Notes: generated by a model not told the origin, from the sequence alone. A DNA stretch of 30,078 nt from Fibrobacterales bacterium (GCA_051532055.1 JAOPTX010000010.1:167613-197690); one strand, 5' to 3'. Positions 6,671 through 30,027 are shown, counted from the first letter of the stretch. Numbers and translations are program-made.

Positions 6671-6682
6671 CGTGATGCCTCC

Positions 6683-10216: not shown

Positions 10217-10236
10217 ACCATTCTCCGTATATTATC

Positions 10237-11148: not shown

Positions 11149-11162
11149 GGTATTTCCTTTTC

Positions 11163-11882: not shown

Positions 11883-13802
11883 CTATTCGTCAGCACTATC
11901 TGTCCAAATGACTCCTTCTTCAAGCCAGTTAATATCTTCTTCAAGAACACTCGCTGCGAGCTTAACTCGTTTATGGTCACAGTTGTCAGAGAGGTCATCA
12001 AAAAGCTTAGCCACTCTATTCTCGGCATCGAGGGAATAGACATCAGCTAAGTAGAGTGGGGTCATGTCATCACCGTTTTTTTCAAAAAGTGATATGGCGT
12101 ATGAACAGGTTGTAGCAATAACAAAGAGTTCAGTGCCAATATCCATAAGTCGTCCCAGTACCATCTGTTTGCTTTCAAGTTTCTCTTGGTAAAGTCCCAT
12201 ATAATGAAAGATAGTTCGGGCGAGTTTATGGCTGGTGGATTCTACAAATTTATAGTGCTTCGCAAGCTTTCCTTTATCCGTATGGCTATTCCAGAGACTA
12301 GAATTGATCCACTGTTTAGGGTACCATTTGGCGTAAAAGGATGCAAGCTGTACCCCGGCGTGGAGTTTCTTGTTTTTTGGACCGTGTTTTTTAATTAGGT
12401 CTGCAGCGATTTTAAGGTGGGGATCCATTGCTTCTCGTGCCAAAAATAGTTGCATGATGTCGCTAGTACCTTCAATGATCCGATTAATACGACAGTCGCG
12501 AAGCATCCTTTCTATAGGGAATGGGTCTTCGCCTCGAGCTTTGAGGGAGGACGCTTTCTCATAACCTCTTCCTCCTCGAAATTGGAGTGCGGTATCAATA
12601 AGTTCCCATGAACGTTCTGTTGACCATAGTTTTGCCATAGCGGCTTCAATTCTAATATCTTTATCTGGGTCATCAGCCCAGGCTGATGTGAGGAGTGATA
12701 CCGCTTCAAGAGCAAAGGTAGTGGATGCGACAAAAGATATTTTTTGTGCGCCTGCCTCATGTTCTCCGATAGGAGCTCCCCATTGTTTTCGCTTATTACC
12801 CCATCGACGCATATAACTGAGGCACTGTTTGGCCATACCAACACTTGATGCAGGGATAGTTAGGCGACCAGTATTAAGTGTTGCAAGGGCAAGTTTAAGT
12901 CCTTTACCTTTGCCCCAAATAATGTTGTCGACCGGTACGGTAACATCGGTAAATGTCATGATTCCATTTTGAATCGCTCGAATTCCCATAAAGTCGCAAC
13001 GATGGGTTACCTGAATACCAGGATATGATTTTTCTACGATAAAAGCAGTTATCTGCTTTACCTCACGACCATTAATGTCTTTGGGTTCTGTCTGAGCCAT
13101 TACTACCATTAGGTCGGCAATGGGTCCATTGGTACACCAGAGCTTTGTACCATTAATGACATAATGAGTTCCCTCTTCATTTAACACCGCAGTGGTTTGC
13201 ATCTGAGCAGGGTCAGAGCCAACACCCGGTTCAGTGAGCGCAAAGGCTGAAATTTTGCCTTCAGCAAATTGTGGGAGATACTTCTTTTTTTGTGCTTCAG
13301 TGCCGAAAAGTTTTAACGGTTGTGGAATACCAATAGATTGGTGAGCTGATATGAAGACGGCAGTTGATGCGCACCATGATGTAATCGCGGCCATGACTCG
13401 ACCATAATTTACCTGAGAGAGTCCCAGGCCATTATACTCCTTGGGAACTTTCATGGCAAATAGATTCATTTTTTTGAATCCTTCGATAATTTCATCGGGA
13501 ATCGTTCTGGTTTCATCTACCTCTTCGGCGTCAAGATTTTCTTTTAAGAACACTGATACTTCTTTTACTAGAGTATCTCCAATGTGGCGTTCGCTTTCAC
13601 TTTGGATCGGAAAAGGAAAGATTGCATCGAGGTCAAGGTTCCCCATAAAGATATTGCCAGCAAAACTGGCACTTTTCCAAACCTCTTCACGTGCATCTTC
13701 GGTCAGGTTGAGTGCTGATGCTTTACCTTCAGACATATGTGAGGTATCTATGAGCATTTCTGGGTCTTCTATTTCTTGTGGTTCATTTGTATTGTCAGAC
13801 AT
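11883..13802 (-). CDS. fadE: Acyl-CoA dehydrogenase (long, VLCAD/ACAD9-like)
   Basis: AFALTEPGVGSD, INGTKLWCTNG, LNTGRL, GGRGY, RDCRINRIIEGT (catalytic Glu), C-terminal extension. Confidence 0.92.
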   Translation of the reverse strand: MSDNTNEPQEIEDPEMLIDTSHMSEGKASALNLTEDAREEVWKSASFAGNIFMGNLDLDAIFPFPIQSESERHIGDTLVKEVSVFLKENLDAEEVDETRTIPDEIIEGFKKMNLFAMKVPKEYNGLGLSQVNYGRVMAAITSWCASTAVFISAHQSIGIPQPLKLFGTEAQKKKYLPQFAEGKISAFALTEPGVGSDPAQMQTTAVLNEEGTHYVINGTKLWCTNGPIADLMVVMAQTEPKDINGREVKQITAFIVEKSYPGIQVTHRCDFMGIRAIQNGIMTFTDVTVPVDNIIWGKGKGLKLALATLNTGRLTIPASSVGMAKQCLSYMRRWGNKRKQWGAPIGEHEAGAQKISFVASTTFALEAVSLLTSAWADDPDKDIRIEAAMAKLWSTERSWELIDTALQFRGGRGYEKASSLKARGEDPFPIERMLRDCRINRIIEGTSDIMQLFLAREAMDPHLKIAADLIKKHGPKNKKLHAGVQLASFYAKWYPKQWINSSLWNSHTDKGKLAKHYKFVESTSHKLARTIFHYMGLYQEKLESKQMVLGRLMDIGTELFVIATTCSYAISLFEKNGDDMTPLYLADVYSLDAENRVAKLFDDLSDNCDHKRVKLAASVLEEDINWLEEGVIWTDSADE

Positions 13803-13809
13803 ACAGTCC

Positions 13810-15951
13810 TCACTGGTAAAAGGTTTGGTTTTTACTTGCTTTTTCTGTTAAAAGTGGTGCGGGCTCGAACCGAGAGCCGTATTGCCGGGTTAAGAGTTCA
13901 AGTTCTGAAACAATTTTTTTAAGGCCAATACTATCTGCATATCTCAGTGGGCCACCTCTGAATGGGGGGAACCCGGAGCCAAGTATCATTGCCATATCAA
14001 GATATTCGGGGCTTTGTACGATACCCTCTTCTATACAGCGTGCAGACTCGTTAATCATTGAGTATATGCAGCGCTTAATTATAGTATCGGTGTCGATTGG
14101 TGAGGTAGTGGTGAGGAATTCATTTCTAATCGTTATTACTTCAGGATTTACGGATTGTTTTTTGCCTGAATGGAGATAGAAACCCTTACCACTTTTTTTA
14201 CCACGGAGAGAAGAATTAGCCATAAGTGAATCAAATATTGGAGCTGTTTTCATTCGCTCACCATATCCCTCTTCGAGAATTTTTGCAACATGATACCCTA
14301 TGTCTATGCCTACCTCATCGGTAAGGGTAAAGGGACCCATAGGCATTCCATAGTCAAGAATTATCTTGTCAATTTCTTCGATGTCACCGCCTTCCTGCCA
14401 GAGTTTTACTGCTTCGTTGAGATAGGGAATTAATATGCGGTTGACCAAAAATCCTGGACAGTCTTGAACGACAATGGGAGTTTTGCCAAGTTTTTTACTG
14501 AGGGTAACGACCGAGGCAATAACCGAGTTCGAACTCTCTTTCCCTGCAATCACCTCTACAAGGGGCATTCTGTTCACAGGATTAAAAAAGTGCATCCCAA
14601 CAAATTTTGACGGCCGTTCAAGTGCCGAAGCCATCTCGGTAATAGAGAGGGATGATGTGTTGGATGCGAGGATAGCATTCGGGGGGAGGTGGTCTTCGCA
14701 TTCTTTAAGGACTTTCTTTTTGACTTCCATATTTTCGACAACTGCTTCTATAGCAATATCACGATCTGAAAATCCGGTAAAATCTAGTGTTCCACCAATG
14801 TGCTGCATCTTAACAGCAACTTGGTGTTTGTTGAGCTTCCGTATTTTAATAAGCTGGCCATACATTTTGGCAGCAGAACTAAAACCAATATTGATTGCCC
14901 CCCACGTAATGTCTTTCATACGGACAGAAATGTCTTTCATACTGAGGGCCCAGGCAATGCCACCACCCATGATTCCTGCTCCAATAACAGCAGCAGAATC
15001 GATATGTTTTATTTCAACATCTTCGGGTACTCCCGTTTCTTTTTTGAGTGCCTCAGAAGTAAAGAATACTTGAATAAGGTTTTTTGAAATGTCTGTAACT
15101 GCAACGTTTGCAAAATGCTCTCGTTCTATAGCGTACCCGTTTGAAGATACTGGGTAGGTTTGCTCAATAACAGCAAGAGCTACAAGTGGTGCAGGATATT
15201 GACCTTTCGTTTTAGCAAAGAGTAGTTTTTTTGTTTTGCTATACACTATTTTTCGGCCCATTGATGTGCTTTCAAATACTTTTTGTATCAGCACTTTATT
15301 AGTGCGTCTCTTTTGTGATTTTTTTAAGAATGAAGAATCCTCAAGTAGATTTTGTAGGATTTTTTCAGATTCATCCTTAAAAAATTCCTTTTTGAAATAC
15401 GTATCAATTATTTTGAATCGATACCCTTTTTTGGTGTCAAATACTTTTGCACCAAGTATCAGATCAAGTGCGGTAGTCAGGCCAGTAATATGAGGGAGTC
15501 TCTGAGTGCCACCAAAACCAGGAATAATACCGAGTGATACTTCAGGGAGGCCCAGTTTACATTTTGGGTTATCAGAGGCAATACGAAGATCACAAGCGAG
15601 TGCTAACTCCATACCACCCCCTAAACATGCACCGTCAATGAGGGCTATAGTAATAAAAGGGAGGGATGCAATAAGATTACAGATGTCTTGGCCGTATTGC
15701 GCTTTTTGCATTGCGTCACTTGGATTTACAATATCTTTAATTTCTGAGATATCTGCACCTGCAATAAAGCAGCCTTCTTTGGCAGAGGTAAAGGCGACGA
15801 CTTTAAGAGTAGCGCGCCCCTTGATGTTTTCGAGTATGGTTTTTAGTTCTTTAAGAACGGAGCTTCCGAGAGTATTTACTCGGGAGTCTGCTTGATTAAA
15901 GGTGATAGTTGCAAGTCCTGAATCAGCTATGTCGAGTGTTACATTACTCAT
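13810..15951 (-). CDS. fadJ: Multifunctional enoyl-CoA hydratase / 3-hydroxyacyl-CoA dehydrogenase (FadJ/FadB)
   Basis: FIAGADI, CLGGGMELALACD, LPEV (crotonase); GAGIMGGG, SNTSSL, GMHFFNPV, GFPPFRGGP (HCDH). Confidence 0.9.
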   Translation of the reverse strand: MSNVTLDIADSGLATITFNQADSRVNTLGSSVLKELKTILENIKGRATLKVVAFTSAKEGCFIAGADISEIKDIVNPSDAMQKAQYGQDICNLIASLPFITIALIDGACLGGGMELALACDLRIASDNPKCKLGLPEVSLGIIPGFGGTQRLPHITGLTTALDLILGAKVFDTKKGYRFKIIDTYFKKEFFKDESEKILQNLLEDSSFLKKSQKRRTNKVLIQKVFESTSMGRKIVYSKTKKLLFAKTKGQYPAPLVALAVIEQTYPVSSNGYAIEREHFANVAVTDISKNLIQVFFTSEALKKETGVPEDVEIKHIDSAAVIGAGIMGGGIAWALSMKDISVRMKDITWGAINIGFSSAAKMYGQLIKIRKLNKHQVAVKMQHIGGTLDFTGFSDRDIAIEAVVENMEVKKKVLKECEDHLPPNAILASNTSSLSITEMASALERPSKFVGMHFFNPVNRMPLVEVIAGKESSNSVIASVVTLSKKLGKTPIVVQDCPGFLVNRILIPYLNEAVKLWQEGGDIEEIDKIILDYGMPMGPFTLTDEVGIDIGYHVAKILEEGYGERMKTAPIFDSLMANSSLRGKKSGKGFYLHSGKKQSVNPEVITIRNEFLTTTSPIDTDTIIKRCIYSMINESARCIEEGIVQSPEYLDMAMILGSGFPPFRGGPLRYADSIGLKKIVSELELLTRQYGSRFEPAPLLTEKASKNQTFYQ

Positions 15952-17239
15952 GGTCTACCTCCAGTAAGAGGGCCCCGCCCTGTCCGCCGCCAATACAAAG
16001 GGTTGCGATGCCTCGTTGAGCACCTCTTCGTTTTAACTCTTTAAGAAGAGTGAGAACAAGTCGCGTTCCGGTAGCTCCAACAGGGTGCCCAATAGCGATT
16101 GCGCCGCCATTAACATTAATGATATCAGGATCTATAGCGCCAACTGCAGTATCTGAATGGAGATAGTGTTTAGAAAAGTCGTCTGACTCAAAAGCTTTGA
16201 GGTTTCCGATGATTTGTGATGCAAATGCTTCATTCATTTCTATGAGATCTATATCTGAAATAGAGAGCCCTGTTTTTTGTAATAACTTTGCAGTTGAATA
16301 AACAGGGCCAAGTCCCATTCTATTTGGAGGGAGTCCAGCATAGCTATAATCACTTAAATACCCTAAAGGAGTTAAATTGAGTTCTTTGGCGCGTGATTCT
16401 GTCATGATAAGGAGCATTCCCGCGCCATCAGTAAGTGGACAAGCGTTGCCAGGGGTGACTGAACCACTGACTGGTTCAAAAACAGGACGGAGCTTACCCA
16501 GTGCCTTCATATTTTGTTCAGCTCTGATTCCGGTGTCTCTGTCAATAAGGTTTTTGTAACTCGGTGGATTGGGAGTGGGTATCAGTTCTTCAGCGAGTAT
16601 CCCTGTCTCTTGGGCTTTTGCTGCTTTGTGATGACTCTCCATCGCGTACCGGTCCTGTTCTTCCCGAGTTATGCCAAATTCTCGAACAAGTACCTCAGCA
16701 GTTTGCCCCATATTGAGTGAACACGTAGGGTCTGTTAGTCCTTGAATGACGGCTATATCGGGTTTTAAGTGAGAGAGTCTAAATGTCGAAAGGGTTTTTA
16801 ATTTTGCGAGAGTTCCTTTGGCTTTTTGGAGTGAACCAAAAAACTTGGTCATTGCACTATTAAAAAGAAGGGGATAGTTACTCATTGATTCAGCCCCACC
16901 GACAATCATGATGGACGCTTCACCTGCGAGTATTTTGTTGGTTGCGGTGGTGAGTGATTCGAATCCCGAAGCACAGTTTCGGTTGACGGTATAGGCTGGG
17001 ATCGAAAGAGGAAGGCCTGCTTTAATAGCAATAATGCGAGCTATATTTGCTTTGTCTGAAGGTTGTCCGACATTCCCAATGATAACTTCGTCTATGAGAT
17101 GTGGGTCAATTGGGACCCGTTCTAATAATTCCTTAAGAATGTGAGCTCCAAGGTCATCGGCAGGTGTTCCATTGAAGTCAGTTCCCGCTTTACAAAATGG
17201 GGTTCGGAGTCCATCAATTATTGCTATTCTCTCTTTCAT
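15944..17239 (-). CDS. fadI: 3-ketoacyl-CoA thiolase (FadI/FadA)
   Basis: NRNCASG (active Cys), NEAFA, GHPVGATG, CIGGGQG; 8-nt overlap with the next gene. Confidence 0.9.
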   Translation of the reverse strand: MKERIAIIDGLRTPFCKAGTDFNGTPADDLGAHILKELLERVPIDPHLIDEVIIGNVGQPSDKANIARIIAIKAGLPLSIPAYTVNRNCASGFESLTTATNKILAGEASIMIVGGAESMSNYPLLFNSAMTKFFGSLQKAKGTLAKLKTLSTFRLSHLKPDIAVIQGLTDPTCSLNMGQTAEVLVREFGITREEQDRYAMESHHKAAKAQETGILAEELIPTPNPPSYKNLIDRDTGIRAEQNMKALGKLRPVFEPVSGSVTPGNACPLTDGAGMLLIMTESRAKELNLTPLGYLSDYSYAGLPPNRMGLGPVYSTAKLLQKTGLSISDIDLIEMNEAFASQIIGNLKAFESDDFSKHYLHSDTAVGAIDPDIINVNGGAIAIGHPVGATGTRLVLTLLKELKRRGAQRGIATLCIGGGQGGALLLEVDHE

Positions 17240-17241
17240 GG

Positions 17242-19008
17242 TTACACCTCTATTTCTGGATACATGGCTGAAATTTCTTCACTAAATTTTTTATCAATAA
17301 CATGACGACGGAGTTTCATAGTAGGAGTAAGTTCACCTGATTCAATTGAAATGGGTTGAGGTATAATAGTGAATGCTTGAATTTGTTCCCAATGATCGAG
17401 CTTTTTATTTACTCGTTGTATGATTTCCTCGATATGGTTTCGGTAAATTTTTGAATTGATAAATTCGTCATCACTCATTTTGGACGCTTTAAATTTACGT
17501 TTTACTTGTGGGATTATTTCGAAGTCAGGAAAAATAAGACAACTGGCAAATTTTCGGTTATCAGCAATAACGGCTGCTGCTTCTATTGTTTTAGTAAGAC
17601 AGAGACGGTGTTCTATGGGGAGAGGTGATACATACTTTCCTGTGGATGTTTTGAAGAGTTCTTTAATGCGACCCAGGAGAACAAGGAATCCGTCTTCATC
17701 AAATGAACCCCGGTCACCGGTGTGGAGCCATCCATCTTTTATGATTTTCTCTGTTTCCGTGGGCATGTTGTGATATCCCTGCATTAAGTTTTCACCTTGT
17801 GCGATCACTTCACCATCGTCAGAAATTTTTATGGTAACATTGGGGAAGGGGTGCCCGACCGTGCCAAGCTTATTACACCCTGGGAAGTTTGCAGCAATAA
17901 CAGGAGAGCACTCTGTAAGGCCATATCCTTGATAAACGGGAACTCCAATGTTGGTAAAAAATCGTCCAATTTTTGGGAAAAGTGCTGCGCCCCCAACTAT
18001 TGTCATTCTGAGTCGGCCACCAAGTCCATCTCTAATTTTAGAGTAGACTATTTTGTTGAGTATTCGGTATTGTAGCGTTGTTTGATCAAGATCGATACGC
18101 ATAGCATATCCAATGGCAATTTTAAGAAGGAGTTTTTTTATACCTCGTTCGGTATTCGGTTTGGCAAGAATTTTAGCATAGGCTTTCTCAAGTATGCGCG
18201 GTACCATTGTCATTATAGTTGGTTTCACCTCTTTCATGAATTCACCAACTTTTTTAACATCATCAACAAAATAGATACTCGCTCCTGAACTTACATAATA
18301 ATACATAACCATTCGCTCAAATACATGGGCGAGAGGGAGGCAGCTTAATATGGTATCAGAGTGAGAATCAATGGGGAACCGTTGAGCAGAACCATGTATT
18401 TGCATCGTTAAGCTTTGGTGAGTAAGTACCACACCCTTGGGGGTGCCTGTACTGCCGCTTGTGTAAATTATTGTTGCAATATCTTCCGGTGAAACCAAAT
18501 CACGCATTTTGCTATAGAGATCTGGTTCCTTCTCAGAGAGTTCATCTCCTGAGAGCAGTATGTCCTGTATATTGACAATGTTAGTTCCTTGAACTTGCAC
18601 GCTATTGGAAATGACTGTTTTAAAACGCCCAAACTCAGATTTGATATGATCTTCAATTTCATCGTCACCATCGATAAAGAGATATTTAATATTGCCATCT
18701 TTAACTTCGTGGTCAAAATGTTCATGAGAAATGTTGTGAAACATCGGTATGGATACCGCTTTGTTGATCATAATAGCAACATCGACCATAAGCCATTGGG
18801 GGGATGGACGGGAGATTATGCCGACACCATCGCCTGGTTGAATACCTAATTGTTTGAAGCCGAGAGCGAGACGCCGAATGCGTTCAACAAATTTTGAGGT
18901 TGAGTAACTTTCCCAGCGATCAAGTATTTTGATATTGAGTGCTTTGGAATTACTGTATTGATTTAATACCTGCTGAATCATTTCGGGTATGGTATTGAAA
19001 TCATGCAT
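17242..19008 (-). CDS. fadD: Long-chain fatty acid-CoA ligase
   Basis: YTSGSTGTPKGV, QGYGLTE, TGD, GRIKE..GKYVSP, TPTMKLRR. Start placed at ATG 19008 (GGAGG RBS), not 19074. Confidence 0.92.
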   Translation of the reverse strand: MHDFNTIPEMIQQVLNQYSNSKALNIKILDRWESYSTSKFVERIRRLALGFKQLGIQPGDGVGIISRPSPQWLMVDVAIMINKAVSIPMFHNISHEHFDHEVKDGNIKYLFIDGDDEIEDHIKSEFGRFKTVISNSVQVQGTNIVNIQDILLSGDELSEKEPDLYSKMRDLVSPEDIATIIYTSGSTGTPKGVVLTHQSLTMQIHGSAQRFPIDSHSDTILSCLPLAHVFERMVMYYYVSSGASIYFVDDVKKVGEFMKEVKPTIMTMVPRILEKAYAKILAKPNTERGIKKLLLKIAIGYAMRIDLDQTTLQYRILNKIVYSKIRDGLGGRLRMTIVGGAALFPKIGRFFTNIGVPVYQGYGLTECSPVIAANFPGCNKLGTVGHPFPNVTIKISDDGEVIAQGENLMQGYHNMPTETEKIIKDGWLHTGDRGSFDEDGFLVLLGRIKELFKTSTGKYVSPLPIEHRLCLTKTIEAAAVIADNRKFASCLIFPDFEIIPQVKRKFKASKMSDDEFINSKIYRNHIEEIIQRVNKKLDHWEQIQAFTIIPQPISIESGELTPTMKLRRHVIDKKFSEEISAMYPEIEV

Positions 19009-19987
19009 TGGAGCCTCCAAATATATAGGGTTCAAATGAGCGTACAATTGTTCGCTCAAGCCCAGAGTGGCCAAATGTGTGCCATGGGCGGTTTTCTATG
19101 GGTGTAATTCTTGATTTGTTTTTTGCTAATTGATCGATATCACTAATGAGGTCTTTAGCTGCGGTAACGCCTGCGCGCATAATAGAATCCAATTGGTGAA
19201 AGTCAGTCCAATGAATTCCTTGTAAATCTGGCTGTATAACAATGTCGGAACAATAATGTAGTTCAGAGTGAATATGGTGATAGATGAGCTCACCCTGTCG
19301 GAAAAGCATGTCGAGCCCGGTGTTGGGCACGTAATGTTGAGTAGGAACTGAGGTGACGTCAACTGAAATAATAATGTCAACGGGGTCAACGTAAAAGGCT
19401 TGTATGGGGACTGGATATACTTGTTGGGAATCTGTAAGAAGTCTATCTCCTAGTGGGATTGGAGGGAAATATCCCGCAATACTTGTTGCGGCAATAATCG
19501 ATTCTTGTATGTTGCCTTTATTAATAAGTACTTGTTGTCCAGTGACAGCGTCTACGGTGCAGACATACATTTTTTGAGGAAGTGTTTCGAGGTTACCAGG
19601 GTGTATGTATTGATCGACGATATTTTTTATAATAGTAGCATCTTCAACATTAGGCTTGGTAACGAGGTGGAAAAACTTGAATGCTTGATCGACACGCTTT
19701 ACCATTCGTTTATGAAGAGGCATTGCGGTGTGTTCTTGAGCTTCGGCATATTGCATTTTTTTAAACTCTTGGGCAAACCGTAATACAAATTGTTTAAACG
19801 TTGTATTGGTCTTGTCAAAGGTGCTATGTTGCATATAGGCAATGGGGATTAGTGAGCCCATTGAAGAACCAGCGATAATATCAACTTCGATGTTTGACTT
19901 TTTCAGCATGCGGAGAATGCCGAGATGTGCAAAAGCACGAGCTCCACCACCACCCAACGCTAATCCAATTCGTAACCCTTTATACAT
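19001..19987 (-). CDS. Patatin-like phospholipase/esterase (RssA/NTE-like)
   Basis: GGGGARAFAH oxyanion motif, GSSMG nucleophile elbow, Asp motif as DSQ; overlaps the fadD start by 8 nt. Confidence 0.88.
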   Translation of the reverse strand: MYKGLRIGLALGGGGARAFAHLGILRMLKKSNIEVDIIAGSSMGSLIPIAYMQHSTFDKTNTTFKQFVLRFAQEFKKMQYAEAQEHTAMPLHKRMVKRVDQAFKFFHLVTKPNVEDATIIKNIVDQYIHPGNLETLPQKMYVCTVDAVTGQQVLINKGNIQESIIAATSIAGYFPPIPLGDRLLTDSQQVYPVPIQAFYVDPVDIIISVDVTSVPTQHYVPNTGLDMLFRQGELIYHHIHSELHYCSDIVIQPDLQGIHWTDFHQLDSIMRAGVTAAKDLISDIDQLAKNKSRITPIENRPWHTFGHSGLERTIVRSFEPYIFGGSNA

Positions 19988-20433: not shown

Positions 20434-21309
20434 GTGATGACATCTTCAATAAAAAATAGTAGTCTCTTTAAAAAAATGATAGAGGATATACCGGTTCCCC
20501 CCAAGCCGACTAACCTCATAAATTTCTTACATGCCTTGAATCAGGATGGGGTTGATATTGGAGTCTTGTCAAAAACCATCACTCAGGATTTAGCTATAAG
20601 TACAGCCATACTTAAAACAGTCAATTCACCCTTTTTAAATATGTCTCAAGAAATTATTTCGATTCAACAAGCAATAGTGTTGCTCGGTCTCGATAACATT
20701 AAAAACCTTCTGTTGTGCTTTTCATTAAAAAGTGCATTTGATAGTTCTGACGACCTTTTCTTGCAAGAATTTTGGAAACAGACCTATGGTGTCTCTCTTA
20801 TTAGTGCGGCACTTGCTCATACGATAACGAATAAACCGAGTGATGAAGCTTTTACCTTTAGTATGGTGTGTGATATAGCAGTGCCAGCAATTGCAGCAGT
20901 AAACAGTGGATATGGCGAACTGTATATAGAACATAGTTTTAGTGAATCTGCATGTGTAATAGATGTTGAAAATAAGAATTATTACATTGATCATTGTGTG
21001 GTGGGTGAATTTATAGCACATCACTGGAACTTGCCACCTTTTTTAAGTAAAGGGATAGAGCTGCATCATACCTATACTGAAAATTTTGGGTATGAGTTTA
21101 ATAGAGGAAATGCTGATTCGATTGTATTTACGGCAATTCACTATCTTGCTGAACATGTGTATGGATCATATAAAGGGAATAATGATTCGTTTGAATGGCG
21201 CAGTGTAAAACCTCAGGTCTTTTCTGTGTTGGGAATAAGAGACGAATTAGTGTCCCAACTTAAAAGTAATTTATTGAGTCTTTATGAAGAAGCTACTTTT
21301 AATTCATAA
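20434..21309 (+). CDS. Stand-alone HDOD domain protein
   Basis: IPVPPKP, QDLAISTAILKTVNSPF, SIQQAIVLLGL, DHCVVG..IAHHWNLP..HH. Start is GTG 20434 or ATG 20437. Confidence 0.88.
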   Translation: MMTSSIKNSSLFKKMIEDIPVPPKPTNLINFLHALNQDGVDIGVLSKTITQDLAISTAILKTVNSPFLNMSQEIISIQQAIVLLGLDNIKNLLLCFSLKSAFDSSDDLFLQEFWKQTYGVSLISAALAHTITNKPSDEAFTFSMVCDIAVPAIAAVNSGYGELYIEHSFSESACVIDVENKNYYIDHCVVGEFIAHHWNLPPFLSKGIELHHTYTENFGYEFNRGNADSIVFTAIHYLAEHVYGSYKGNNDSFEWRSVKPQVFSVLGIRDELVSQLKSNLLSLYEEATFNS

Positions 21310-21380: not shown

Positions 21381-21495
21381 TCTAACAGTATTCTAACTGT
21401 TCTCATTGGTATCTCACATATCTAACCTCTGCGACATGCCCCCTCCCCATATTTAACCTGTGGCTCATGTATTTCTAACAATGCATTTCTACCTT
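21381..21495 (+). promoter_or_regulatory. Pho-box-like direct repeat array and -10 element
   Basis: TCTAAC-like hexamers at 21381/21392, 21401/21412, 21421 and 21452/21463/21474 (mostly 11-bp period); -10-like TACCTT at 21490. Confidence 0.7.
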
Positions 21496-21512: not shown

Positions 21513-21701
21513 GAACAGAATTATGATGGGCGAACAAAAGTACAAGTGGAATCCCTCGTAACTTTGGTGGACTGGATGATTCATGAGGGTTAGCAGTTTA
21601 CTAAACCGCAGTACTATGCGCCACTCCTCGCTAAAGCACTCGTTCAAGCCGAAGAAATACTTGCTTTAATTACCTAAAATGGTAAGGCAGTCCAAAAATA
21701 A
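21513..21701 (+). pseudogene. pstS: C-terminal remnant of phosphate-binding protein PstS
   Basis: Translates as EQNYDGRTKVQVESLVTLVDWMIHEG*QFTKPQYYAPLLAKALVQAEEILALIT*NGKAVQK*. It resembles PstS C-termini (W..GQ...YAPL...ITYNGK), has two internal stops (21591, 21675) and lacks the 5' part of the gene. Confidence 0.8.
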
Positions 21702-21774: not shown

Positions 21775-22455
21775 ATGAAGAAAATATTAATAATAGAAGA
21801 TGATGAAGATATCCGAGAGTTACTCAGCTACAACCTTACTCAAGAAGGGTATACGGTAATAGATGCTCCCGATGGACAAAAAGGACTCGAAAAGTATTGG
21901 AATGATACTCCTCATCTGGTACTGCTTGACATAATGATGCCCGGAAAAAATGGTATTGATGTTTTGAAAGAAATCAGGAATGGTAAAATAGCACCCCACA
22001 CACCAGTAATCCTCATTTCTGCAAAAGGTGAAGAACTAGACATTGTAATGGGGCTTGAACTTGGTGCTGATGATTATGTGGTTAAACCGTTTAGTTTAAA
22101 AGTACTTTTTGCACGAATACGGAAAGTATTTTCAAAAGCGGTACAGAAAAGTGAGATGGTGACCGATATAATTTCCCATTATGAAATTACAATTGATGAT
22201 AGCAAACGTAAAGTATCCTATGGGGATAATGAACTCGACCTCACTGCATCAGAATTTTCGGCGCTCTATTTCTTAATCTCTAATCCAGGAAGGGTCTATA
22301 CACGTAATCAGATTATTTCTGCGGTCCATGGAGATGACTATTTTGTCACCGACCGAAGTATCGATGTTCTTATCGTAAGTTTACGTAAGAAGATGGGGGA
22401 TGCCGGTAAACTTATCGAAACAATTAGAGGAGTAGGGTATAAATTCTCCGAGTAA
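21775..22455 (+). CDS. phoB: OmpR-family response regulator, PhoB-like
   Basis: IEDD, LLDIMMPG (phospho-Asp), GLELGADDYVVKPFS, DRSIDV, ETIRGVGY; phosphate gene context. Confidence 0.85.
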   Translation: MKKILIIEDDEDIRELLSYNLTQEGYTVIDAPDGQKGLEKYWNDTPHLVLLDIMMPGKNGIDVLKEIRNGKIAPHTPVILISAKGEELDIVMGLELGADDYVVKPFSLKVLFARIRKVFSKAVQKSEMVTDIISHYEITIDDSKRKVSYGDNELDLTASEFSALYFLISNPGRVYTRNQIISAVHGDDYFVTDRSIDVLIVSLRKKMGDAGKLIETIRGVGYKFSE

Positions 22456-24214
22456 TACCAAAAAGCGACGCCTCTTTTGGGATATTCTTCCTTCATATGT
22501 TTTGATAATAGTAATATCTATTATCACACTTGGTTGGTTTTCAACACTTACCATTCGTGACACTTCAATTACTAGTCTTGAAAAAGATCTTACAGCCCGG
22601 TCTACTATCGTTGATAAAGTTTTTTCTCAACTCTATAATGAATCCCAAGGTTATATTGAAGCGCTTAATATATTGAGTATTAAAACCGAAACACGGGTTA
22701 CTGTTATTCAAGGTGATGGACTCGTAATTTTTGATTCTCACAAAAACATTCAATTGATGGATAATCACTATTATCGTCCCGAAATTATTGATACTCGGAA
22801 GTCAGGTACTGGTTCAGCTATTCGCTATAGTAATACCATAAATAAAGAAATGGTTTATAGTGCAGTGCGCTCTGAGGTTCCCGATGTTGTTATTCGAACC
22901 GCTGTTCCTATGACTGCGGTTGAATCGTTTATTGCTGGCTATACTCAGAGAGTTGTGTTTGCCGGGACCTTTACACTGCTCTTTGCAATATTTGTTGCCA
23001 TAATAATATCTAAACGTATTACTGATCCACTGACAACGTTGAGGGAAGGCGCTCAAGTTATAGCTGAAGGTCATTTACAACATAAATTACCCGACTATGA
23101 GTGGTACGAAATGTCATCACTCTCCCAGTCTATGAATGAAATGTCATCCCAACTTATGCAACGTATTACTGTCGCTAATGATCAAAAGAACGAATTGGAA
23201 GCGGTGTTTGCGAGTATGAATGCTGGCATTGTAGCGATAGATAAGAAAGGGATTCTCTCTCGGTACAATAATTCATTTCTCCAAATGTTTTTATTAACAA
23301 ACGATAGGGCAAAGAAGAGAAAGCTGACCCATATTATAGGTGAAAATCAATTGGATGAATTATTACAACATATTCACCAAACCTCAAACCCGGTAGATGC
23401 TGATATTGAAATAACGAATGGTGATGAAGGACGAGTGTTTCATGTTCGTGGGTCAGTATTACTCGATGTCAATGGCAACGATATCGGTGCGCTTCTTGTT
23501 TTTAATGATGTGACAAAAATCCGAGAACTAGAAAACATGCGGTCTCAATTTGTCTCAAATGTATCACATGAATTACGCACTCCCATTACTTCAATTCAAG
23601 GGTATATTGAGACCCTTCTTAATGGTGCCATTAATGATATAGCAGCACGTGATAAATTCCTTGGGGTTATCCAAAAGCAAGCAGGTCGTTTGGCCGCGAT
23701 TATTGAAGACCTTTTAGCTCTTTCACGCATCGAAAAGAGTGATGATATGCTCATAAGAAAAGAAGAATGCATTAAAGAGGTAGTTGATTCTGCAATACAG
23801 TTAACAAAAATTGCTGCAGAAGAGAAGAACATCACTCTTGTAAATGCTATTGATGAGAGTATTGCCCTTTCTGTAAATGCGAACCTTATTGAACAGGCTT
23901 TGGTGAATTTGATTAATAATTCGATTAAATATACTGATGATGGAAAAGTAATCACGATGAGCTCGGTTGTTGAAAAGAATGCCATTTCTATTGTAGTAGA
24001 GGATCAAGGGTTTGGTATTGATAAAATGCACTTAAAGCACTTATTTGAACGTTTTTATCGAGTCGATAAGGCGCGGAGTAGAAATGTTGGCGGAACTGGC
24101 CTTGGACTCTCAATTGTAAAACATATTGTGCAGATCCATGGTGGAATTGTGGATGTTGAGAGTGAAGTAGATGTCGGTTCGAGATTTAGTATGAAATTCC
24201 CTAAGGTTATTTAA
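22439..24214 (+). CDS. phoR: Sensor histidine kinase, PhoR-like (start uncertain: ATA 22439 or TTG 22502)
   Basis: Two TM helices, periplasmic MDNHYYRPEI motif, HAMP, PAS, FVSNVSHELRTP H-box, FERFYRVDKARSR..GGTGLGLSIVKH. Confidence 0.85.
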   Translation: MNSPSNTKKRRLFWDILPSYVLIIVISIITLGWFSTLTIRDTSITSLEKDLTARSTIVDKVFSQLYNESQGYIEALNILSIKTETRVTVIQGDGLVIFDSHKNIQLMDNHYYRPEIIDTRKSGTGSAIRYSNTINKEMVYSAVRSEVPDVVIRTAVPMTAVESFIAGYTQRVVFAGTFTLLFAIFVAIIISKRITDPLTTLREGAQVIAEGHLQHKLPDYEWYEMSSLSQSMNEMSSQLMQRITVANDQKNELEAVFASMNAGIVAIDKKGILSRYNNSFLQMFLLTNDRAKKRKLTHIIGENQLDELLQHIHQTSNPVDADIEITNGDEGRVFHVRGSVLLDVNGNDIGALLVFNDVTKIRELENMRSQFVSNVSHELRTPITSIQGYIETLLNGAINDIAARDKFLGVIQKQAGRLAAIIEDLLALSRIEKSDDMLIRKEECIKEVVDSAIQLTKIAAEEKNITLVNAIDESIALSVNANLIEQALVNLINNSIKYTDDGKVITMSSVVEKNAISIVVEDQGFGIDKMHLKHLFERFYRVDKARSRNVGGTGLGLSIVKHIVQIHGGIVDVESEVDVGSRFSMKFPKVI

Positions 24215-24254: not shown

Positions 24255-24309
24255 CCTAATCAGTAATTGTTAGGTTTCTAATAGAAATCTAACAATTCTA
24301 TTCTATACT
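24255..24309 (+). promoter_or_regulatory. Pho-box-like promoter of Na/Pi cotransporter 1
   Basis: CCTAAT 24255, TCTAAT 24277, TCTAAC 24288 (11-bp register), TATACT at 24304; same geometry as the promoter at 21474-21495. Confidence 0.7.
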
Positions 24310-24371: not shown

Positions 24372-26522
24372 ATGAAAATTTCGACTAATGCGTTTCGCAC
24401 ACTGTGTGTGATGTTCATGGTAGTCATGAGCGTATCAATAAACCTTTGGGCAACAGAGGCACAGCCCCTTCCTTTAAACTTAGAGTCTCAGCCTGTAGGA
24501 CAGGTTGTCTATGAAGAGAAAGAGTATGATTTGGTAGTTGCGCCAAATCACTCATTTGAATTGCTTCCCAAGGCTGTAGATCTTTCTTTACAAAAAGAGA
24601 ATGTTTTTACTGGAGTCGTTCGGTTATATAAAAAAGAGATACCTCTGAAGGGCACAAAGCTCACCTTTAAAGATGAAATGGGTAAAGAGGTTACCACAAA
24701 AAGTAATCGTGATGGAGAGTTTACTGTAAAAGGCCTTACGGGAAAAGAATTTAAAGTATCGGCTTCTCTTAAAAAGCATGAACTGAATGGGGCTACAATT
24801 TCTATCGCTGGACCAGAGGTAAAAGACCTCACTATCATCATGGCTTCTGAAGCCGATGTGATGAAAATGGTATTCTCGGTTCTTGGTGGGCTGGGTATTT
24901 TCTTACTTGGGATGCGCTATATGTCAGATGGACTTCAGACCGTTTCTGGACCATCTCTCAAGCGTATGATTTCATTGGTTACCGATAACCGTTTTCTTGC
25001 AACAGGTGTGGGAGTTGCAGTAACGTGCTTTGTTCAGTCGAGTTCAATAACTACGGTCATGGCAGTTGGATTTGTTAACTCTGGTATTATGGCATTGAAT
25101 CAGGCAATAGGCGTGATATTAGGTGCTAATATTGGTACGACCATTACGGGCTGGATTCTTGTGTTGAAAATTGGTAAATGGGGCCTTCCACTTATTGGTG
25201 TGTTTGCTTTTGTATTTCTCTTTTCTAAAAGAGAGAAGCTCAGATATTTTGCATTGGTATTTATTGGTGTCGGTATGGTTTTCTTTGGGTTAGAGCTGAT
25301 GAAAAATGGTTTCAAGCCTATCAGATCAATGCCTGAGTTTTCAGAAATGTTCGCACTCTTTCAAGCAACATCTTATTTGAATGTCTTAAAAATTGCAGCT
25401 ATAGGATGTATTCTTACCATGATTGTTCAGTCATCTTCTGCAACACTCGGTATAACAATAGGTCTTGCGTCTACAGGAGTTATTGGCTTTGAAACTGCAG
25501 CCGCTCTGGTACTCGGTGAAAATATTGGTACTACCATTACAGCGCTTCTTGCTTCAATTGGCACCACTACAAATGCACGGAGAGCGGCATACTTTCATGC
25601 ACTCTTTAATGTAGCGGGGGTGCTCTGGATAACGGCAATTTTTCAATATTATCTACCGCTCGTTATAAGTGTTGTAGGGCATGACCCTAATATGATGGTA
25701 ATGAAAGATGGTTCAGAAACGTATCCCTATATCACTGCGGGTATAGCATCGACTCATACTATTTTTAATATAGTGAACACTTTAATTTTTCTTCCTTTTA
25801 CAGGCTACATAGCAAACTTCCTCATGAAATTTGTTAAAGACGCTAAGGTAAAGCCTGCAGAAATGATTACCAATCTTCAGTATTCTATGATTGGTACTCC
25901 ATATGCGTCAGTACAACAGTCTAAGCTTGAAATTGATAAGATGGAAGTAGCAGCAAAAGAGATGATGGATGACCTTAAAAAAGTGCTCTCAAATGATTCT
26001 AATAGAGATACTCTTATTAAAAAGATCTTTAAAGATGAAGATATACTCGATGTTATGCAGAAAGAGATCACCGAGTTCTTGACAGAATTCTTGAGTACAC
26101 AGATTCCACAGGATGTAGCTGAGACTGCTAAAGAACATTTAAGAATGTGTGATGAGCTTGAGTCGGTATCTGATTATGTAATGCAAATTGTAAAATTACA
26201 ACTGCGTCTTGAAGATAATGATGTTGCCCTATCTCAAAATAGAATGAATAGTATCATCGAGTTACACGATACCGTTAAAGAGTTCTTTGATTTTGTTATG
26301 GTGTGTGAGAGCAAAGAACAGGTACAAGAACAGTTCACTGCTATTTCAGATAAAAGTGATGCTATTACCCGTCAAATTAGAACACTTCGTAATGATTATT
26401 GGAAAATTGCTTCTGAAGAAAAAGTTAATCCTATGGTAAGTACTACTTATACGGATATTCTTCAATCGTATCGAAAAATTAAGAACCATATCCTTAATGA
26501 GGCTGAAGTACAAACGTTATAA
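24372..26522 (+). CDS. nptA: Na/Pi cotransporter (NptA/YjbB family) with N-terminal extracytoplasmic domain and C-terminal PhoU-like domain
   Basis: GGLGIFLLGM, two QSSS motifs, GANIGTT/GENIGTT, helical C-terminus; about 160-aa N-terminal extension beginning with a signal-peptide-like segment. Confidence 0.88.
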   Translation: MKISTNAFRTLCVMFMVVMSVSINLWATEAQPLPLNLESQPVGQVVYEEKEYDLVVAPNHSFELLPKAVDLSLQKENVFTGVVRLYKKEIPLKGTKLTFKDEMGKEVTTKSNRDGEFTVKGLTGKEFKVSASLKKHELNGATISIAGPEVKDLTIIMASEADVMKMVFSVLGGLGIFLLGMRYMSDGLQTVSGPSLKRMISLVTDNRFLATGVGVAVTCFVQSSSITTVMAVGFVNSGIMALNQAIGVILGANIGTTITGWILVLKIGKWGLPLIGVFAFVFLFSKREKLRYFALVFIGVGMVFFGLELMKNGFKPIRSMPEFSEMFALFQATSYLNVLKIAAIGCILTMIVQSSSATLGITIGLASTGVIGFETAAALVLGENIGTTITALLASIGTTTNARRAAYFHALFNVAGVLWITAIFQYYLPLVISVVGHDPNMMVMKDGSETYPYITAGIASTHTIFNIVNTLIFLPFTGYIANFLMKFVKDAKVKPAEMITNLQYSMIGTPYASVQQSKLEIDKMEVAAKEMMDDLKKVLSNDSNRDTLIKKIFKDEDILDVMQKEITEFLTEFLSTQIPQDVAETAKEHLRMCDELESVSDYVMQIVKLQLRLEDNDVALSQNRMNSIIELHDTVKEFFDFVMVCESKEQVQEQFTAISDKSDAITRQIRTLRNDYWKIASEEKVNPMVSTTYTDILQSYRKIKNHILNEAEVQTL

Positions 26523-26559
26523 AATAACGCTAGTTTTCATTGATTTCATCTGTTTTCAG

Positions 26560-26591
26560 ATAAAAGAGCCCTTAATTAGGGGCTCTTTTAT
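26560..26591 (+). terminator. Intrinsic terminator between the two transporters
   Basis: ATAAAAGAGCCCTT-AATT-AGGGGCTCTTTTAT. Confidence 0.9.
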
Positions 26592-26640
26592 TGTTTTATT
26601 CGATGCACCATTAAGAATAGTGGGCGATAGTATGGGGTAT

Positions 26641-26649
26641 TGCTATAAT
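26641..26649 (+). promoter_or_regulatory. Extended -10 promoter of Na/Pi cotransporter 2
   Basis: Consensus TGCTATAAT 25 nt upstream of the ATG. Confidence 0.65.
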
Positions 26650-26674
26650 TCTGCAAAATTATGATTAATGAGCG

Positions 26675-28867
26675 ATGAAAATGAAAATTGGGAAGTACAA
26701 TAAAATTATTTCGTTAGCGTTTCTTTTGTGTTTCACTTGTATAAGTAGTGCGAGTGAAAATGTATCACTGAGAGGCTCAAGTATCAGTGATACTCTTGCA
26801 GAGAGTATTGAGGTAAATGATGCTCCAAAAAATGTTGAGTTAGTTACTTCTGATAGTGAATTTTCTCTTACGGTCGATACCATGTCTCATGTAGGTATTC
26901 GTGGTGTGGTAAGAGCTTTTAATGATAAACAAGGTTTTAAAGCCAAGCATGCGGTGGAAAAAGTATCACTACTGTTGTGTAGTGGCTCTCTCGTAAAAAC
27001 AGAATCAAGTGATGAATTTAAGTATGGTTACAAATGTAATGGTACTGTTTTTAAACAAATTCATTCGGATATCGATGGACGATTTTCCATTGCACAAATT
27101 CCGAAAGGAACCTATTCTGTTGCTGTGCTTAAAAAACAACACTCTCTCTTTTCATCAACAGTAATAACTCAAAGTGGAGTTCCCACTGAATTACAGATTG
27201 TTGTTGTGAAAAGGCCTGATTTTAAATTGATGATCTTTTTTGTGATCGGAGGGTTAGGTATATTTCTTTTAGGTATGCGTTTTCTTTCTGATGGTCTCCA
27301 GACAGTTTCTGGACCGACTCTTAAGCGTATGATTAGCCTTGTCACCGATAATAGATTACTTGCAACGGGCGTTGGTGTCGTTGTAACTGGAGTGGTTCAA
27401 TCAAGCTCTATTACGACCGTGATGGCGGTTGGTTTTGTGAATTCGGGAATAATGGCGCTTAATCAGGCGATAGGGGTCATACTCGGTGCTAATATTGGGA
27501 CAACTATAACCGGTTGGATCATGGTGCTTAAAATAGGGAAATGGGGCCTTCCAATTATTGGGGTTTGTGTTTTTATTTATCTCTTCTCGAAGCGTGAAAA
27601 AATTAAGTACCTTGCGTTGGCGCTTATGGGACTCGGAATGATTTTCTTTGGTCTTGAACTCATGAAAGATGGATTCAAGCCAGTTAAAAATATGCCTGAG
27701 TTTATCGAGTGGTTTACCATGGTAAATGCGACTTCATTTGTCAATGTGATTAAATTGGCATCTATAGGATGTGTTCTTACCATGATAGTACAGTCCTCTT
27801 CAGCTACCCTTGGTATTGTGATTGGACTCGCGTCTACTGGTGTTCTTGAATTTGAAACTGCTGCTGCTCTTGTCGTAGGTGTGAATATAGGTACAACTAT
27901 TACAGCACTCATAGCGTCTATTGGAGTAAACACCAATGCACGGCGTGTTGCCTATTTCCACTGTATATTCAATGTCGTCGGGGCCTTGTGGGTTATTGTG
28001 ATATTCTATCAATATCTTGATATTGTTCGCATGCTTGTTCCCGAAGTTGAGGTAAATGGGGTAAAAGAATTTCCAATTCTTGCAGGTATTGCTATGACTC
28101 ATACGGTCTTTAATATTGTGAATACAGTGGTCTTCCTGCCTTTTACTGGGGTGATAGGAAATTTCTTAATGAAGATTGTGAAGGATAAGAAAATAGCTTC
28201 AAAAGACCTTGTCACAAACTTGCAGTACTCAATGCTCTCATCTCCCTATGCATCTATACAGCAATCAAAAATTGAAATTGATAAGATGGAGAAGAGTGCT
28301 AAAGAGATGATGGATGATCTAAGATTGATATTCTCGGGTTCTGAAAAGAAAGATGTGTATATTAAAAAAGTTTTTAAGGATGAAGATAAGCTTGATCTTA
28401 TGCAAAAGGAAGTAACTGAATTTCTTACTGAGTTTTTAAGTACTCAAATCCCTCAAGATGTTGCTGAGACTGCGAAGGACCATTTGAGAATGTGTGATGA
28501 ACTTGAGTCCGTGAGTGATTATGTAATGCAGATTCTAAAATTAAAACTTCGTTTGGAAGAGAATGACACTCGCTTTTCTTCGGAGCAGGTAAGTAATATC
28601 ATCGAGCTCCATGATACGGTTAAATCATTTTTTGATTACGTCATGGAATGTGGATCTAAAGAAGGAGTTCGAGATAAGTTTGCTGAGATTCTTGAAAAGA
28701 GTGATCAGATAACGCGTAAAATTAGAACACTGAGAAATGATTATTGGAAAATGGCCTCAGAGCAAAAAATTAATCCAATGGTCAGTACCTCATATACCGA
28801 TGTTCTCCAATCGTATCGTAAAATTAAGAATCACTTACTTAATGAAGTAGAGGTTCAAGCAGTATAA
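26675..28867 (+). CDS. nptA: Na/Pi cotransporter paralog 2, same fused architecture
   Basis: Two QSSS motifs, GANIGTT/GVNIGTT; core highly similar to paralog 1; divergent N-terminal extension of about 180 aa. Confidence 0.88.
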   Translation: MKMKIGKYNKIISLAFLLCFTCISSASENVSLRGSSISDTLAESIEVNDAPKNVELVTSDSEFSLTVDTMSHVGIRGVVRAFNDKQGFKAKHAVEKVSLLLCSGSLVKTESSDEFKYGYKCNGTVFKQIHSDIDGRFSIAQIPKGTYSVAVLKKQHSLFSSTVITQSGVPTELQIVVVKRPDFKLMIFFVIGGLGIFLLGMRFLSDGLQTVSGPTLKRMISLVTDNRLLATGVGVVVTGVVQSSSITTVMAVGFVNSGIMALNQAIGVILGANIGTTITGWIMVLKIGKWGLPIIGVCVFIYLFSKREKIKYLALALMGLGMIFFGLELMKDGFKPVKNMPEFIEWFTMVNATSFVNVIKLASIGCVLTMIVQSSSATLGIVIGLASTGVLEFETAAALVVGVNIGTTITALIASIGVNTNARRVAYFHCIFNVVGALWVIVIFYQYLDIVRMLVPEVEVNGVKEFPILAGIAMTHTVFNIVNTVVFLPFTGVIGNFLMKIVKDKKIASKDLVTNLQYSMLSSPYASIQQSKIEIDKMEKSAKEMMDDLRLIFSGSEKKDVYIKKVFKDEDKLDLMQKEVTEFLTEFLSTQIPQDVAETAKDHLRMCDELESVSDYVMQILKLKLRLEENDTRFSSEQVSNIIELHDTVKSFFDYVMECGSKEGVRDKFAEILEKSDQITRKIRTLRNDYWKMASEQKINPMVSTSYTDVLQSYRKIKNHLLNEVEVQAV

Positions 28868-29178: not shown

Positions 29179-30027
29179 ATGTCGATAAATAGTGTTCGTG
29201 AAAAACTTATTGAGGGGTTGATTCTGGATATCCCGCTTCCACCAAAACCAGAAATACTGTTACGTTTTGTTAGAGAAAGAGAACGTGATGAACTTGACCT
29301 TGAGGGGTTTGGAAATATCATTTCAAATGATATGGCTTTGGCATTGGCTATAATTAAAACTGTAAATTCATCATTTTTTGGTTTAGAGTATGAAGTACGT
29401 TCAGTGAACCATGCAATATCAATGCTGGGATTAGAAAATATTGAGAACCTTGTACTTGCTTTTTCTTTAGAAAGGTCGTTGAGTCAAGGAGACAGTTTTT
29501 TGCTCAATCAGTTCTGGGAGACAAACCGTATAAAGGCCCTTATTGGATCGAGTCTTGCAACGAGCTATACCCGGATCTCTTCAGATTTAGCCTATACCTT
29601 TTGTCTCATATGCGATTGTGGTGTACCTGCAATTATGAGGAAAGAGCAGAGTTATGCGGAGTTTTATGCCGGTATCGCCGATAAAGTTTCAGAAGATCAT
29701 GTTACTCAAGAAGAAGATATTTATATGTATAACCATGCTCAGGTTGGAGCGCACCTTCTTAAAGAGTGGCTTGTACCAGAAGATCTCATTCTAGGTGTTA
29801 AATATCACCACCATACTGATTTGCATGCTCTTGACATAACTCATGAGGTAAAGGTTTTAATCGCCTTACAGCACCTAGCAAGTGATATATTCTCTCGCTT
29901 TTATCATAATGAGTCTTACTACTACTGGAGTAATAGCATGGGTCAAAGCCTGGACTTACTCGATATTACTGATAAAGGGCTTGCGGGAATTGAGAAAAAC
30001 TTTAAGTTATTACTCGATGAGTTGTAG
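29179..30027 (+). CDS. Stand-alone HDOD domain protein (paralog 2)
   Basis: IPLPPKP, NDMALALAIIKTVNSSFFG, SVNHAISMLGL, NHAQVG..LKEWLVP..YHH. Confidence 0.88.
   Translation: MSINSVREKLIEGLILDIPLPPKPEILLRFVRERERDELDLEGFGNIISNDMALALAIIKTVNSSFFGLEYEVRSVNHAISMLGLENIENLVLAFSLERSLSQGDSFLLNQFWETNRIKALIGSSLATSYTRISSDLAYTFCLICDCGVPAIMRKEQSYAEFYAGIADKVSEDHVTQEEDIYMYNHAQVGAHLLKEWLVPEDLILGVKYHHHTDLHALDITHEVKVLIALQHLASDIFSRFYHNESYYYWSNSMGQSLDLLDITDKGLAGIEKNFKLLLDEL

Follow-up and report, generated by a model that had tools for sequence, protein, structure and literature searches.

A 30,078-nucleotide stretch of DNA from a Fibrobacterales bacterium (GCA_051532055.1 JAOPTX010000010.1:167613-197690; hereafter the window) carries two tandem sodium/phosphate (Na/Pi) cotransporter genes, nptA1 (24372-26522, + strand; 716 aa) and its paralogue nptA2 (26675-28867, +; 730 aa), whose products are predicted to begin with an exported N-terminal extension. 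Existing annotation describes such proteins as plain Na/Pi cotransporters. The two products were 68% identical over 606 aligned residues. Each contained two PF02690 stretches scoring above the cut-off (193.7 bits for NptA1 and 197.9 bits for NptA2), passed TIGR00704 (238 and 240; cut-off 210) and NF037997, and ended in a PhoU tail above the PF01895 cut-off (32.3 and 39.6 bits). Neither reached the cut-off of 306 for TIGR01013, which covers eukaryote-type SLC34 and Vibrio NptA (84.7 and 71.4 bits). In NptA1, the membrane core spans residues 163-487 (24858-25832, +) and the PhoU-like domain residues 505-716 (25884-26519, +), the latter superposing on PhoU 2i0m (VIA Z 22.5, root-mean-square deviation (rmsd) 2.4, 197 aligned residues). 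The core and PhoU-like domain of NptA2 were placed at 27221-28864 (+) from profile matches and the paralogue alignment. The NptA1 core motifs QSSS (residues 222-225 and 353-356), NIGTT (253 and 384), H409/N413 and H462/N466 were conserved in at least 122 of 123 aligned rows. These results show that NptA1 and NptA2 are members of the NptA family with intact core motifs, confirming the Na/Pi cotransporter identity given in an earlier note made from the sequence alone.

The GGLG motif of the first membrane helix is preceded by 171 residues in NptA1 and 191 in NptA2. Among the 120 best homologues, the same stretch had a median of 14 residues, with at most 30 in 105 proteins, 31-99 in nine and at least 100 in six. 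As the first transmembrane helix (TM1) of NptA1 starts at about residue 163 in an AlphaFold2 model, the 160-180 aa extension reported in the earlier note was upheld, and the segments quoted there (INLWA, ISSA, GVVR...SNRDGEFTVKGL and HSDIDGRFSIAQIPKGTYSVAV) were found in the translations. Each extension opens with a basic n-region, an h-region and small residues at the predicted cleavage site, cleavage being called from this pattern. In NptA1, the predicted signal peptide (residues 1-27; 24372-24452, +) ends in INLWA, corresponds to a model helix at residues 5-27 and had a ratio of non-synonymous to synonymous substitution rates (dN/dS, computed throughout against a sister genome) of 0.125. 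It is followed by a disordered linker (residues 28-48; 24453-24515, +) with a predicted local distance difference test (pLDDT) score below 50 and a dN/dS of 0.73, a short extra beta element (residues 50-62; 24519-24557, +) with a similar segment in homologues, and a transthyretin-like, PF13620-like beta-sandwich (residues 77-159; 24600-24848, +). NptA2 has a predicted signal peptide ending in ISSA (residues 1-26; 26675-26752, +) and a PF13620-like beta-sandwich (residues 73-181; 26891-27217, +) with an insert between C102 and C121; both cysteines are retained in the sister genome and likely form a disulfide.

The AlphaFold2 model of NptA1, built with 123 sequences, had a mean pLDDT of 87. It placed the helix at 5-27, gave low confidence to the linker (26-47) and assigned strands to 77-159, a block with pLDDT 83-94 whose final strand continues into TM1 with almost no linker; the membrane core and a PhoU bundle follow. 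The top VIA structure matches of the domain were 5aq0 (Z 8.0, rmsd 2.5, 77 aligned residues), 9hfj and 1qmu, and a profile search of the domain agreed with this fold (NOMO2, E 3.6e-13; SdrD, E 3.1e-8). The isolated extensions matched PF13620 at residues 80-156 (E 3.4e-5, 24.6 bits) and 127-176 (E 3.7e-4, 21.2 bits), and the homologue P0002 exceeded the PF13620 cut-off with 47.0 bits. As modelled, the extension has a transthyretin-like beta-sandwich fold; the PF13620-like sandwich proposed in the earlier note was thus supported by the AlphaFold2 fold, with hidden Markov model scores of the isolated extensions below the cut-off. Of the structural checks suggested there, AlphaFold2 modelled the beta-sandwich, and Foldseek returned no match at E<=0.001 for either the full model or the domain alone. 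An ESM Atlas match of the extension to PF13620 clusters (0.80 only) is at best a lead, and the predicted homodimer of the domain, which scored 0.14 against a mark of 0.42, was used neither for nor against any reading. Across 10 aligned domains, conservation was limited to glycine/turn and hydrophobic positions, and distant copies were 15-34% identical. The net charge of the domain flips sign among homologues, and neither a conserved Ser/Thr/Arg site nor any sign of a phosphate site was found among these 10 domains. No periplasmic-binding-protein domain was found in the extension, which models as a beta-sandwich. Substrate capture by the domain, as the earlier note had envisaged, was therefore not upheld, the fold not being that of a binding protein and only glycine/turn and hydrophobic positions being conserved.

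An in-frame stop lies directly 5' of the nptA1 ATG, with AAGGA upstream. The dN/dS values were 0.128 and 0.157 for the domains of NptA1 and NptA2, 0.011 and 0.019 for their cores, and 0.57-0.73 for the linkers; the beta-sandwich domain is under purifying selection. The region was present in one metatranscriptome. A contig from this RNA library covers 24506-25184 with zero mismatches and spans the NptA1 domain and TM1, and a second runs from the pstS remnant described below through phoB into phoR. Contigs were at least 99% identical elsewhere in the window, so the organism was present in that RNA run; the run was found using this stretch, and its contigs prove neither transcription nor its level, its absence or a ranking of genes. 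For nptA2, only a 238-nt internal piece was listed, leaving the extension uncovered, and no expression difference is claimed. The earlier note had allowed that translation might really start at an internal Met before GGLGIF. This was not borne out, and an internal start or annotation artefact was rejected, since the extension recurs in other genomes, has dN/dS values of 0.128/0.157 and is spanned by an RNA-library contig.

We collected 300 full-length NptAs, a non-random and fusion-enriched set that includes near-copies. No extension was found in 237 of them; 24 carried a domain seen in Planctomycetota, 10 a PF13620-like domain, 12 a short linker behind a signal peptide (two of these doubtful and relabelled before the tree was built), nine tandem Big_1-type lipoprotein domains, five other modules and three a whole PstS. 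In 63 proteins, TM1 was preceded by at least 80 residues; 59 of them had a signal-like hydrophobic segment, one was a narrow miss and three appeared to be untranslated frames. Presence of an extension required 13 changes on a 289-row tree, from which 11 near-identical cluster members had been removed. As the position is occupied by unrelated modules (PF13620-like, Ig/cadherin-like and Big_1 domains, linkers and PstS), the N-terminus of NptA is likely an exported slot.

The whole PstS lipoproteins were fused in frame to the NptA N-terminus in three loci from Planctomycetota metagenome-assembled genomes (MAGs), L194 (3839-6448), L222 (2257-4824) and L106 (4110-6671). The PstS parts of L194 and L222 exceeded the TIGR02136 cut-off; in L106 the PstS lobes are in swapped order, and the gene closes a pstCABB-phoU operon. 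All retain GSDT and R-x-x-x-SGT, which we take to be the phosphate-binding motifs of PstS, and a single origin of the three was not rejected (approximately unbiased test, p-AU 0.28). The PstS-NptA fusion is a candidate binding-protein-dependent secondary phosphate transporter and is a stronger lead than the beta-sandwich. The slot also showed further variety. The widespread Planctomycetota variant (L072, L078, L084, L116, L126, L140, L145-L153, P0134, P0146 and others) has, behind its signal peptide, a domain of roughly 100 aa with a W-x-P-D-Y-W end right at TM1; this domain had no Pfam match, resembled Big_9/cadherin clusters by ESM features (score 0.91), and occurred in nine of 15 regions fetched from one family, in which 59 of 151 genomes had NptA. 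One member, L146 (G307:C11), has a long tail, with 908 aa past the TM1 motif. Other exported modules (P0151, P0159, P0162, P0166, L122, L136, P0106 and P0148) included Big_1-like lipoprotein domains in tandem, a domain resembling helical repeats, a beta-rich domain of a lipoprotein from a Fusobacteria MAG and domains without annotation, and the N-terminus of a Lentisphaera NptA is a disordered linker.

PstS is a known exported protein and is here fused directly to TM1, which places the N-terminal end of NptA outside; since every fusion partner that could be identified is an exported one, an outside-to-inside course of the first membrane helix is likely. Judged from sequence, the NptA core is likely N-out with seven helices and a cytoplasmic PhoU domain, inverted relative to SLC34A2. 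Positive-inside counts over 123 rows gave a mean of 14.9 Lys plus Arg (K+R) in the five inside loops of the N-out arrangement, compared with 7.9 in the five outside loops. The longest repeat alignment with SLC34A2 paired its repeat 1 with bacterial repeat 2, and the cysteine pair of the NptA2 domain fits the periplasm. SLC34A2 (PDB 9Z60) has repeats homologous to those of NptA (E 1.9e-17), and the site residues QSSS, Thr, Asn and His described in the accessible part of a preprint are kept in NptA (bioRxiv 10.64898/2026.05.25.727688). According to the same text, SLC34A2 has eight helices, of which TM1 and TM4 form the moving gate, and the accessible main text is silent on bacteria (bioRxiv 10.64898/2026.05.25.727688). 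SLC34A2 differs in having eight transmembrane helices, a cytoplasmic N-terminus and no PhoU domain, whereas NptA here is predicted to have seven helices and to be N-out. The position of the Na1-site Asp of SLC34A2 is Ala, Ile or Val in NptA here, hinting at an SLC34A3-like stoichiometry. SLC34A2 has one H-x3-N motif per repeat, whereas both motifs of NptA1 lie after repeat 2 (TM6 and TM7; residues 409-466, window 25596-25769); the last helix may complete repeat 1 in bacterial NptA. SLC34A2 was absent from the results of structure searches with the NptA1 model, and a PDB sequence search brought up no bacterial NptA/YjbB structure.

The distribution of the fusion was examined with a search profile comprising the domain and TM1. 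This profile matched 77 of 251 Fibrobacterota genomes, with a whole-profile match in only three, each of which had been used in training. Beyond the phylum, a set of 79 loci yielded three with the fusion, all from Spirochaetes MAGs (3 of 12 genomes in the family concerned), and the proteins P0002 and P0005 carry it as well; a single-sequence search with the extension alone returned three proteins. The breadth given by these searches is a lower bound. The PF13620-like NptA fusion is rare (3/251 Fibrobacterota genomes). No account of NptA fused to a signal peptide, PF13620 or PstS was found in the accessible literature, whose coverage leaves out most subscription journals; within these bounds, the earlier note's view of the architecture as undescribed holds. 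In two trees, eight of the nine fusion cores formed a single clade, with support of 96 and 89. The G003 fusion lay outside it, but one common origin for the nine was not rejected (p-AU 0.49), and no direction of transfer between Fibrobacterota and Spirochaetes is claimed.

The genome containing the window is a Fibrobacterales MAG of 5.17 Mb and 94.4% completeness. PstS (PF12849, TIGR00975) had no match in it and PstC none above the cut-off. When the PstC, PstA and PhoU of a relative were used as tblastn queries, no credible match was obtained, and the relative's PstB matched generic ABC ATPases only. The earlier note's claim that pstS has decayed here was confirmed: a pseudogene remnant at 21513-21686 (+), with an in-frame internal stop, matched the C-terminus of the relative's PstS (45% over 58 aa, E 3.5e-8) as the sole match in the genome, and the sister genome lacks even this remnant. 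A PiT gene is retained. In a third NptA, the sister of the fusion clade, the signal peptide is followed by a short linker and the domain is lacking. The only three PhoU matches in the genome are NptA tails, and neither a standalone phoU nor PitR was found. The link between fusion and loss of pstS proposed in the earlier note failed in the comparison of genomes: pstC is absent from all three Fibrobacterota carriers, but all three Spirochaetes carriers have a pstC above the cut-off plus a second, PstA-like match, so that three of six fusion genomes keep pstC. In these Spirochaetes, the fusion gene sits outside the pho loci. Within the order, Pst is commonly lost from genomes that lack the fusion: in the related genus g6, 66 of 76 genomes have no pstC and 72 have NptA, and none matches the fusion profile.

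The position of nptA1 behind phoBR was as the earlier note had described: it is preceded by a PhoB-like response regulator gene (21775-22455, +), the product of which has TIGR02154 as its best NCBIfam match, below the cut-off, and is 46% identical to the regulator of the relative's pst locus, and by a PhoR/PnpS-like histidine kinase gene (22502-24214, +), identified from profile matches and the relative's pst locus. A Pho-box-like pattern, derived from these loci, consists of two half-sites 11 bp apart, 10 nt and a -10 hexamer. It forms a putative PhoB-binding promoter of nptA1 (24277-24309, +) and a second such promoter 5' of the pstS remnant and phoB (21463-21495, +). The sites are kept in the sister genome, and sites of this type also stand ahead of all four other pho units of the relative's locus. 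Four sites were found in the genome, two of which had defined the pattern, against a mean of 0.56 at 41 other spacings. The third (G000:C7:118527; L063:586-2018) lies ahead of an ArsC-like LMWPc gene, with a DUF3078 beta-barrel-like gene next in line, and the fourth is unassigned. A loose pattern of two half-sites was not enriched (48 at spacing 5 versus 53-67 elsewhere), whereas the version with the -10 hexamer was. No Pho-box-like site lies ahead of nptA2. A terminator-like hairpin (26559-26592, +) separates the two genes, and an extended -10-like TGCTATAAT at 26641-26649, ahead of nptA2, is kept in the sister genome; the latter element suggests a promoter of its own for nptA2. In S. aureus, NptA is an importer that depends on PhoPR and modulates it through its PhoU domain, according to the accessible text (PMC13170248), and the same is therefore likely for the PhoU tails of NptA here.

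On balance, and with modest confidence, we favor the view that the periplasmic beta-sandwich is a non-catalytic structural accessory and that the core imports phosphate with Na+. The signal peptide would be cleaved and the domain would fold in the periplasm; TM1 would then run from outside to inside, giving an N-out core of seven helices with PhoU in the cytoplasm, opposite to animal SLC34, and this core alone would perform Na+-coupled phosphate import. PhoB would switch on nptA1. Feedback on PhoR would come, as in S. aureus, from the NptA tails, which carry every PhoU-type domain found in this genome. The beta-sandwich would have been acquired by domain shuffling into an exported N-terminal slot tolerant of many modules, for which the 47 PF13620 matches in this genome offer a ready source, and would have been kept for aiding insertion, folding or stability or for providing a weak contact surface. 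The domain appears dispensable in the family, as 105 of the 120 closest homologues have at most 30 residues before the motif and the third paralogue is domainless. Several points weigh against this view. Neither extension reaches the PF13620 gathering cut-off of 32.3 bits; the VIA Z of 8.0 is middling, at the level that the tool calls a "possibly common arrangement"; and two loops fit the N-out topology poorly, TM2-TM3 with 1.55 K+R and that from TM4 to hairpin 2 (HP2) with 4.1 K+R. Purifying selection, survival of duplication and sharing with Spirochaetes argue that the domain is not neutral baggage, and its abutting TM1, a mobile gate helix in SLC34A2, leaves room for a regulatory role. In SusC, deletion of the same fold abolished growth, as reported in the accessible text (PMC7782687); selection, the adjoining gate helix and this deletion phenotype together make a real function likely. 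Finally, the direction of NptA transport is presumed, and the accessible account of YjbB describes phosphate export upon overexpression (PMC11850910).

A different role for the domain, as a docking site for a periplasmic or outer-membrane partner (a porin, phosphatase or cell-wall protein) that channels phosphate, would suit a domain that is under selection and whose fold commonly mediates protein contacts; for the N-terminal extension (NTE) of SusC, the accessible text proposes a part in interactions (PMC7782687). Weak Porin_O_P matches in the genome (two of four above the cut-off), the DUF3078 gene behind the third Pho-box-like site and the relative's unfused nptA, which adjoins a putative porin, point in the same direction. 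Docking is nevertheless unlikely, as no conserved partner gene stands beside the fusion in the Fibrobacterales, G003 and Spirochaetes loci, the 10 aligned domains share no conserved surface patch, and the relative's porin had no tblastn match in this genome. Mechanical coupling of the domain to the TM1 gate, by which it would tune rate or affinity or sense the envelope, is less probable again. The last strand runs into TM1, several unrelated rigid domains likewise end there, and TM1 and TM4 are the moving gate in the accessible description of SLC34A2 (bioRxiv 10.64898/2026.05.25.727688), but most homologues are bare at the N-terminus, the Lentisphaera protein has a disordered linker, and no bacterial structure or kinetics were found. 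The proposal of the earlier note, in which the domain captures periplasmic phosphate and the fusion arose as a substitute for the lost Pst, was rejected and is very improbable. It draws on the absence of pstC and PstS from all three Fibrobacterota carriers and on the true PstS-NptA fusions, which occupy the same position and indicate that the slot is able to serve capture. Against it stand the Spirochaetes carriers, which keep pstC/pstA (3/3), genus g6, which has lost pstC in 66 of 76 genomes with the fusion absent, and a fold unlike that of a binding protein, with no conserved Ser/Thr/Arg site. Moreover, the fusion likely predates the loss, because the pstS remnant is still 45% recognizable while the fused paralogues have diverged to 68% identity. 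That the extension is missing from the mature protein or lies in the cytoplasm, through an internal start or an uncleaved reverse anchor, is hardly credible: Met codons do occur at residues 157, 164 and 166, just ahead of TM1, and animal NaPi-II has cytoplasmic N- and C-termini according to the accessible text (PMC6325988), but the dN/dS of 0.13-0.16, the confident fold, the signal-peptide pattern, the Cys pair, an architecture common to two phyla and the mismatch-free contig at 24506-25184 all argue otherwise. We also consider a bolder proposal, possible but doubtful, in which bacterial NptA is upside-down relative to animal SLC34 and its exported N-terminus is a socket on the moving gate helix that has repeatedly taken up periplasmic modules controlling uptake; with PstS in the socket, as in some Planctomycetota, it would form a one-chain, binding-protein-fed, Na+-driven phosphate importer, and in the clade of NptA1 and NptA2 the gate would be linked through the transthyretin-like domain to a partner in the periplasm or outer membrane.

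S. aureus NptA belongs to the same family (TIGR00704/NF037997) and has the same layout of core and C-terminal PhoU; the proteins described here differ in their predicted signal peptide and periplasmic beta-sandwich, and in a genome in which no Pst, PhoU or PitR was found. The terms "signal peptide" and "periplasm" do not occur in the main text of the S. aureus NptA paper, as far as it was accessible (PMC13170248). The SusC NTE (PF13715; 9hfj, 6ytc) shares the fold of the NptA1 domain (VIA Z 8.0, rmsd 3.1, 74 aligned residues), and in its accessible description it is a periplasmic N-terminal transporter appendage, important but with no assigned function (PMC7782687). However, it precedes the TonB box of an outer-membrane TonB-dependent barrel, whereas the NptA domain precedes a helix of an inner-membrane symporter. 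In TRAP/TAXI transporters, an extracytoplasmic module feeds an ion-driven carrier, which the PstS-NptA proteins of L106, L194 and L222 would resemble; NptA1 and NptA2 differ in that their domain is no substrate-binding protein and in the transporter family. YjbB of E. coli and Salmonella is, like NptA here, a PF02690 family member, and we take it to have a PhoU-like tail and no N-terminal extension. YjbB is reportedly insufficient for import, and it can export phosphate when overexpressed (PMC11850910).

Import versus export by some bacterial NptA/YjbB proteins is disputed. Natural fusions to exported domains are ready-made topology reporters, and they point opposite to SLC34A2; with a rigid domain attached to TM1, a small transporter also brings its own fiducial for cryo-electron microscopy. 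A genome without detected Pst, PhoU and PitR offers a clean natural case, in which PhoR is likely controlled by NptA PhoU domains alone, and with the PstS-NptA fusions, binding-protein-dependent secondary transport would come to include phosphate. The beta-sandwich is probably a modest addition at the level of the lineage; what deserves following up is the exported socket, the likely inversion of the membrane topology and the fusions of PstS to NptA.

Other features of the window were also recorded. Stand-alone HDOD-domain genes flank the phoBR-nptA block (20434-21309 and 29179-30027), and likewise in the sister genome. A complete Rnf operon with RseC (6098-11585, - strand) could supply the ion gradient for the symporters. 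A fatty-acid beta-oxidation operon with patatin first lies at 11883-19987 (- strand), and three tandem paralogues with LVIVD repeats (580, 518 and 550 aa) occupy 91-5408. One RNA-library contig joins 2690 back to 1201, probably via the similarity of the LVIVD-repeat copies.

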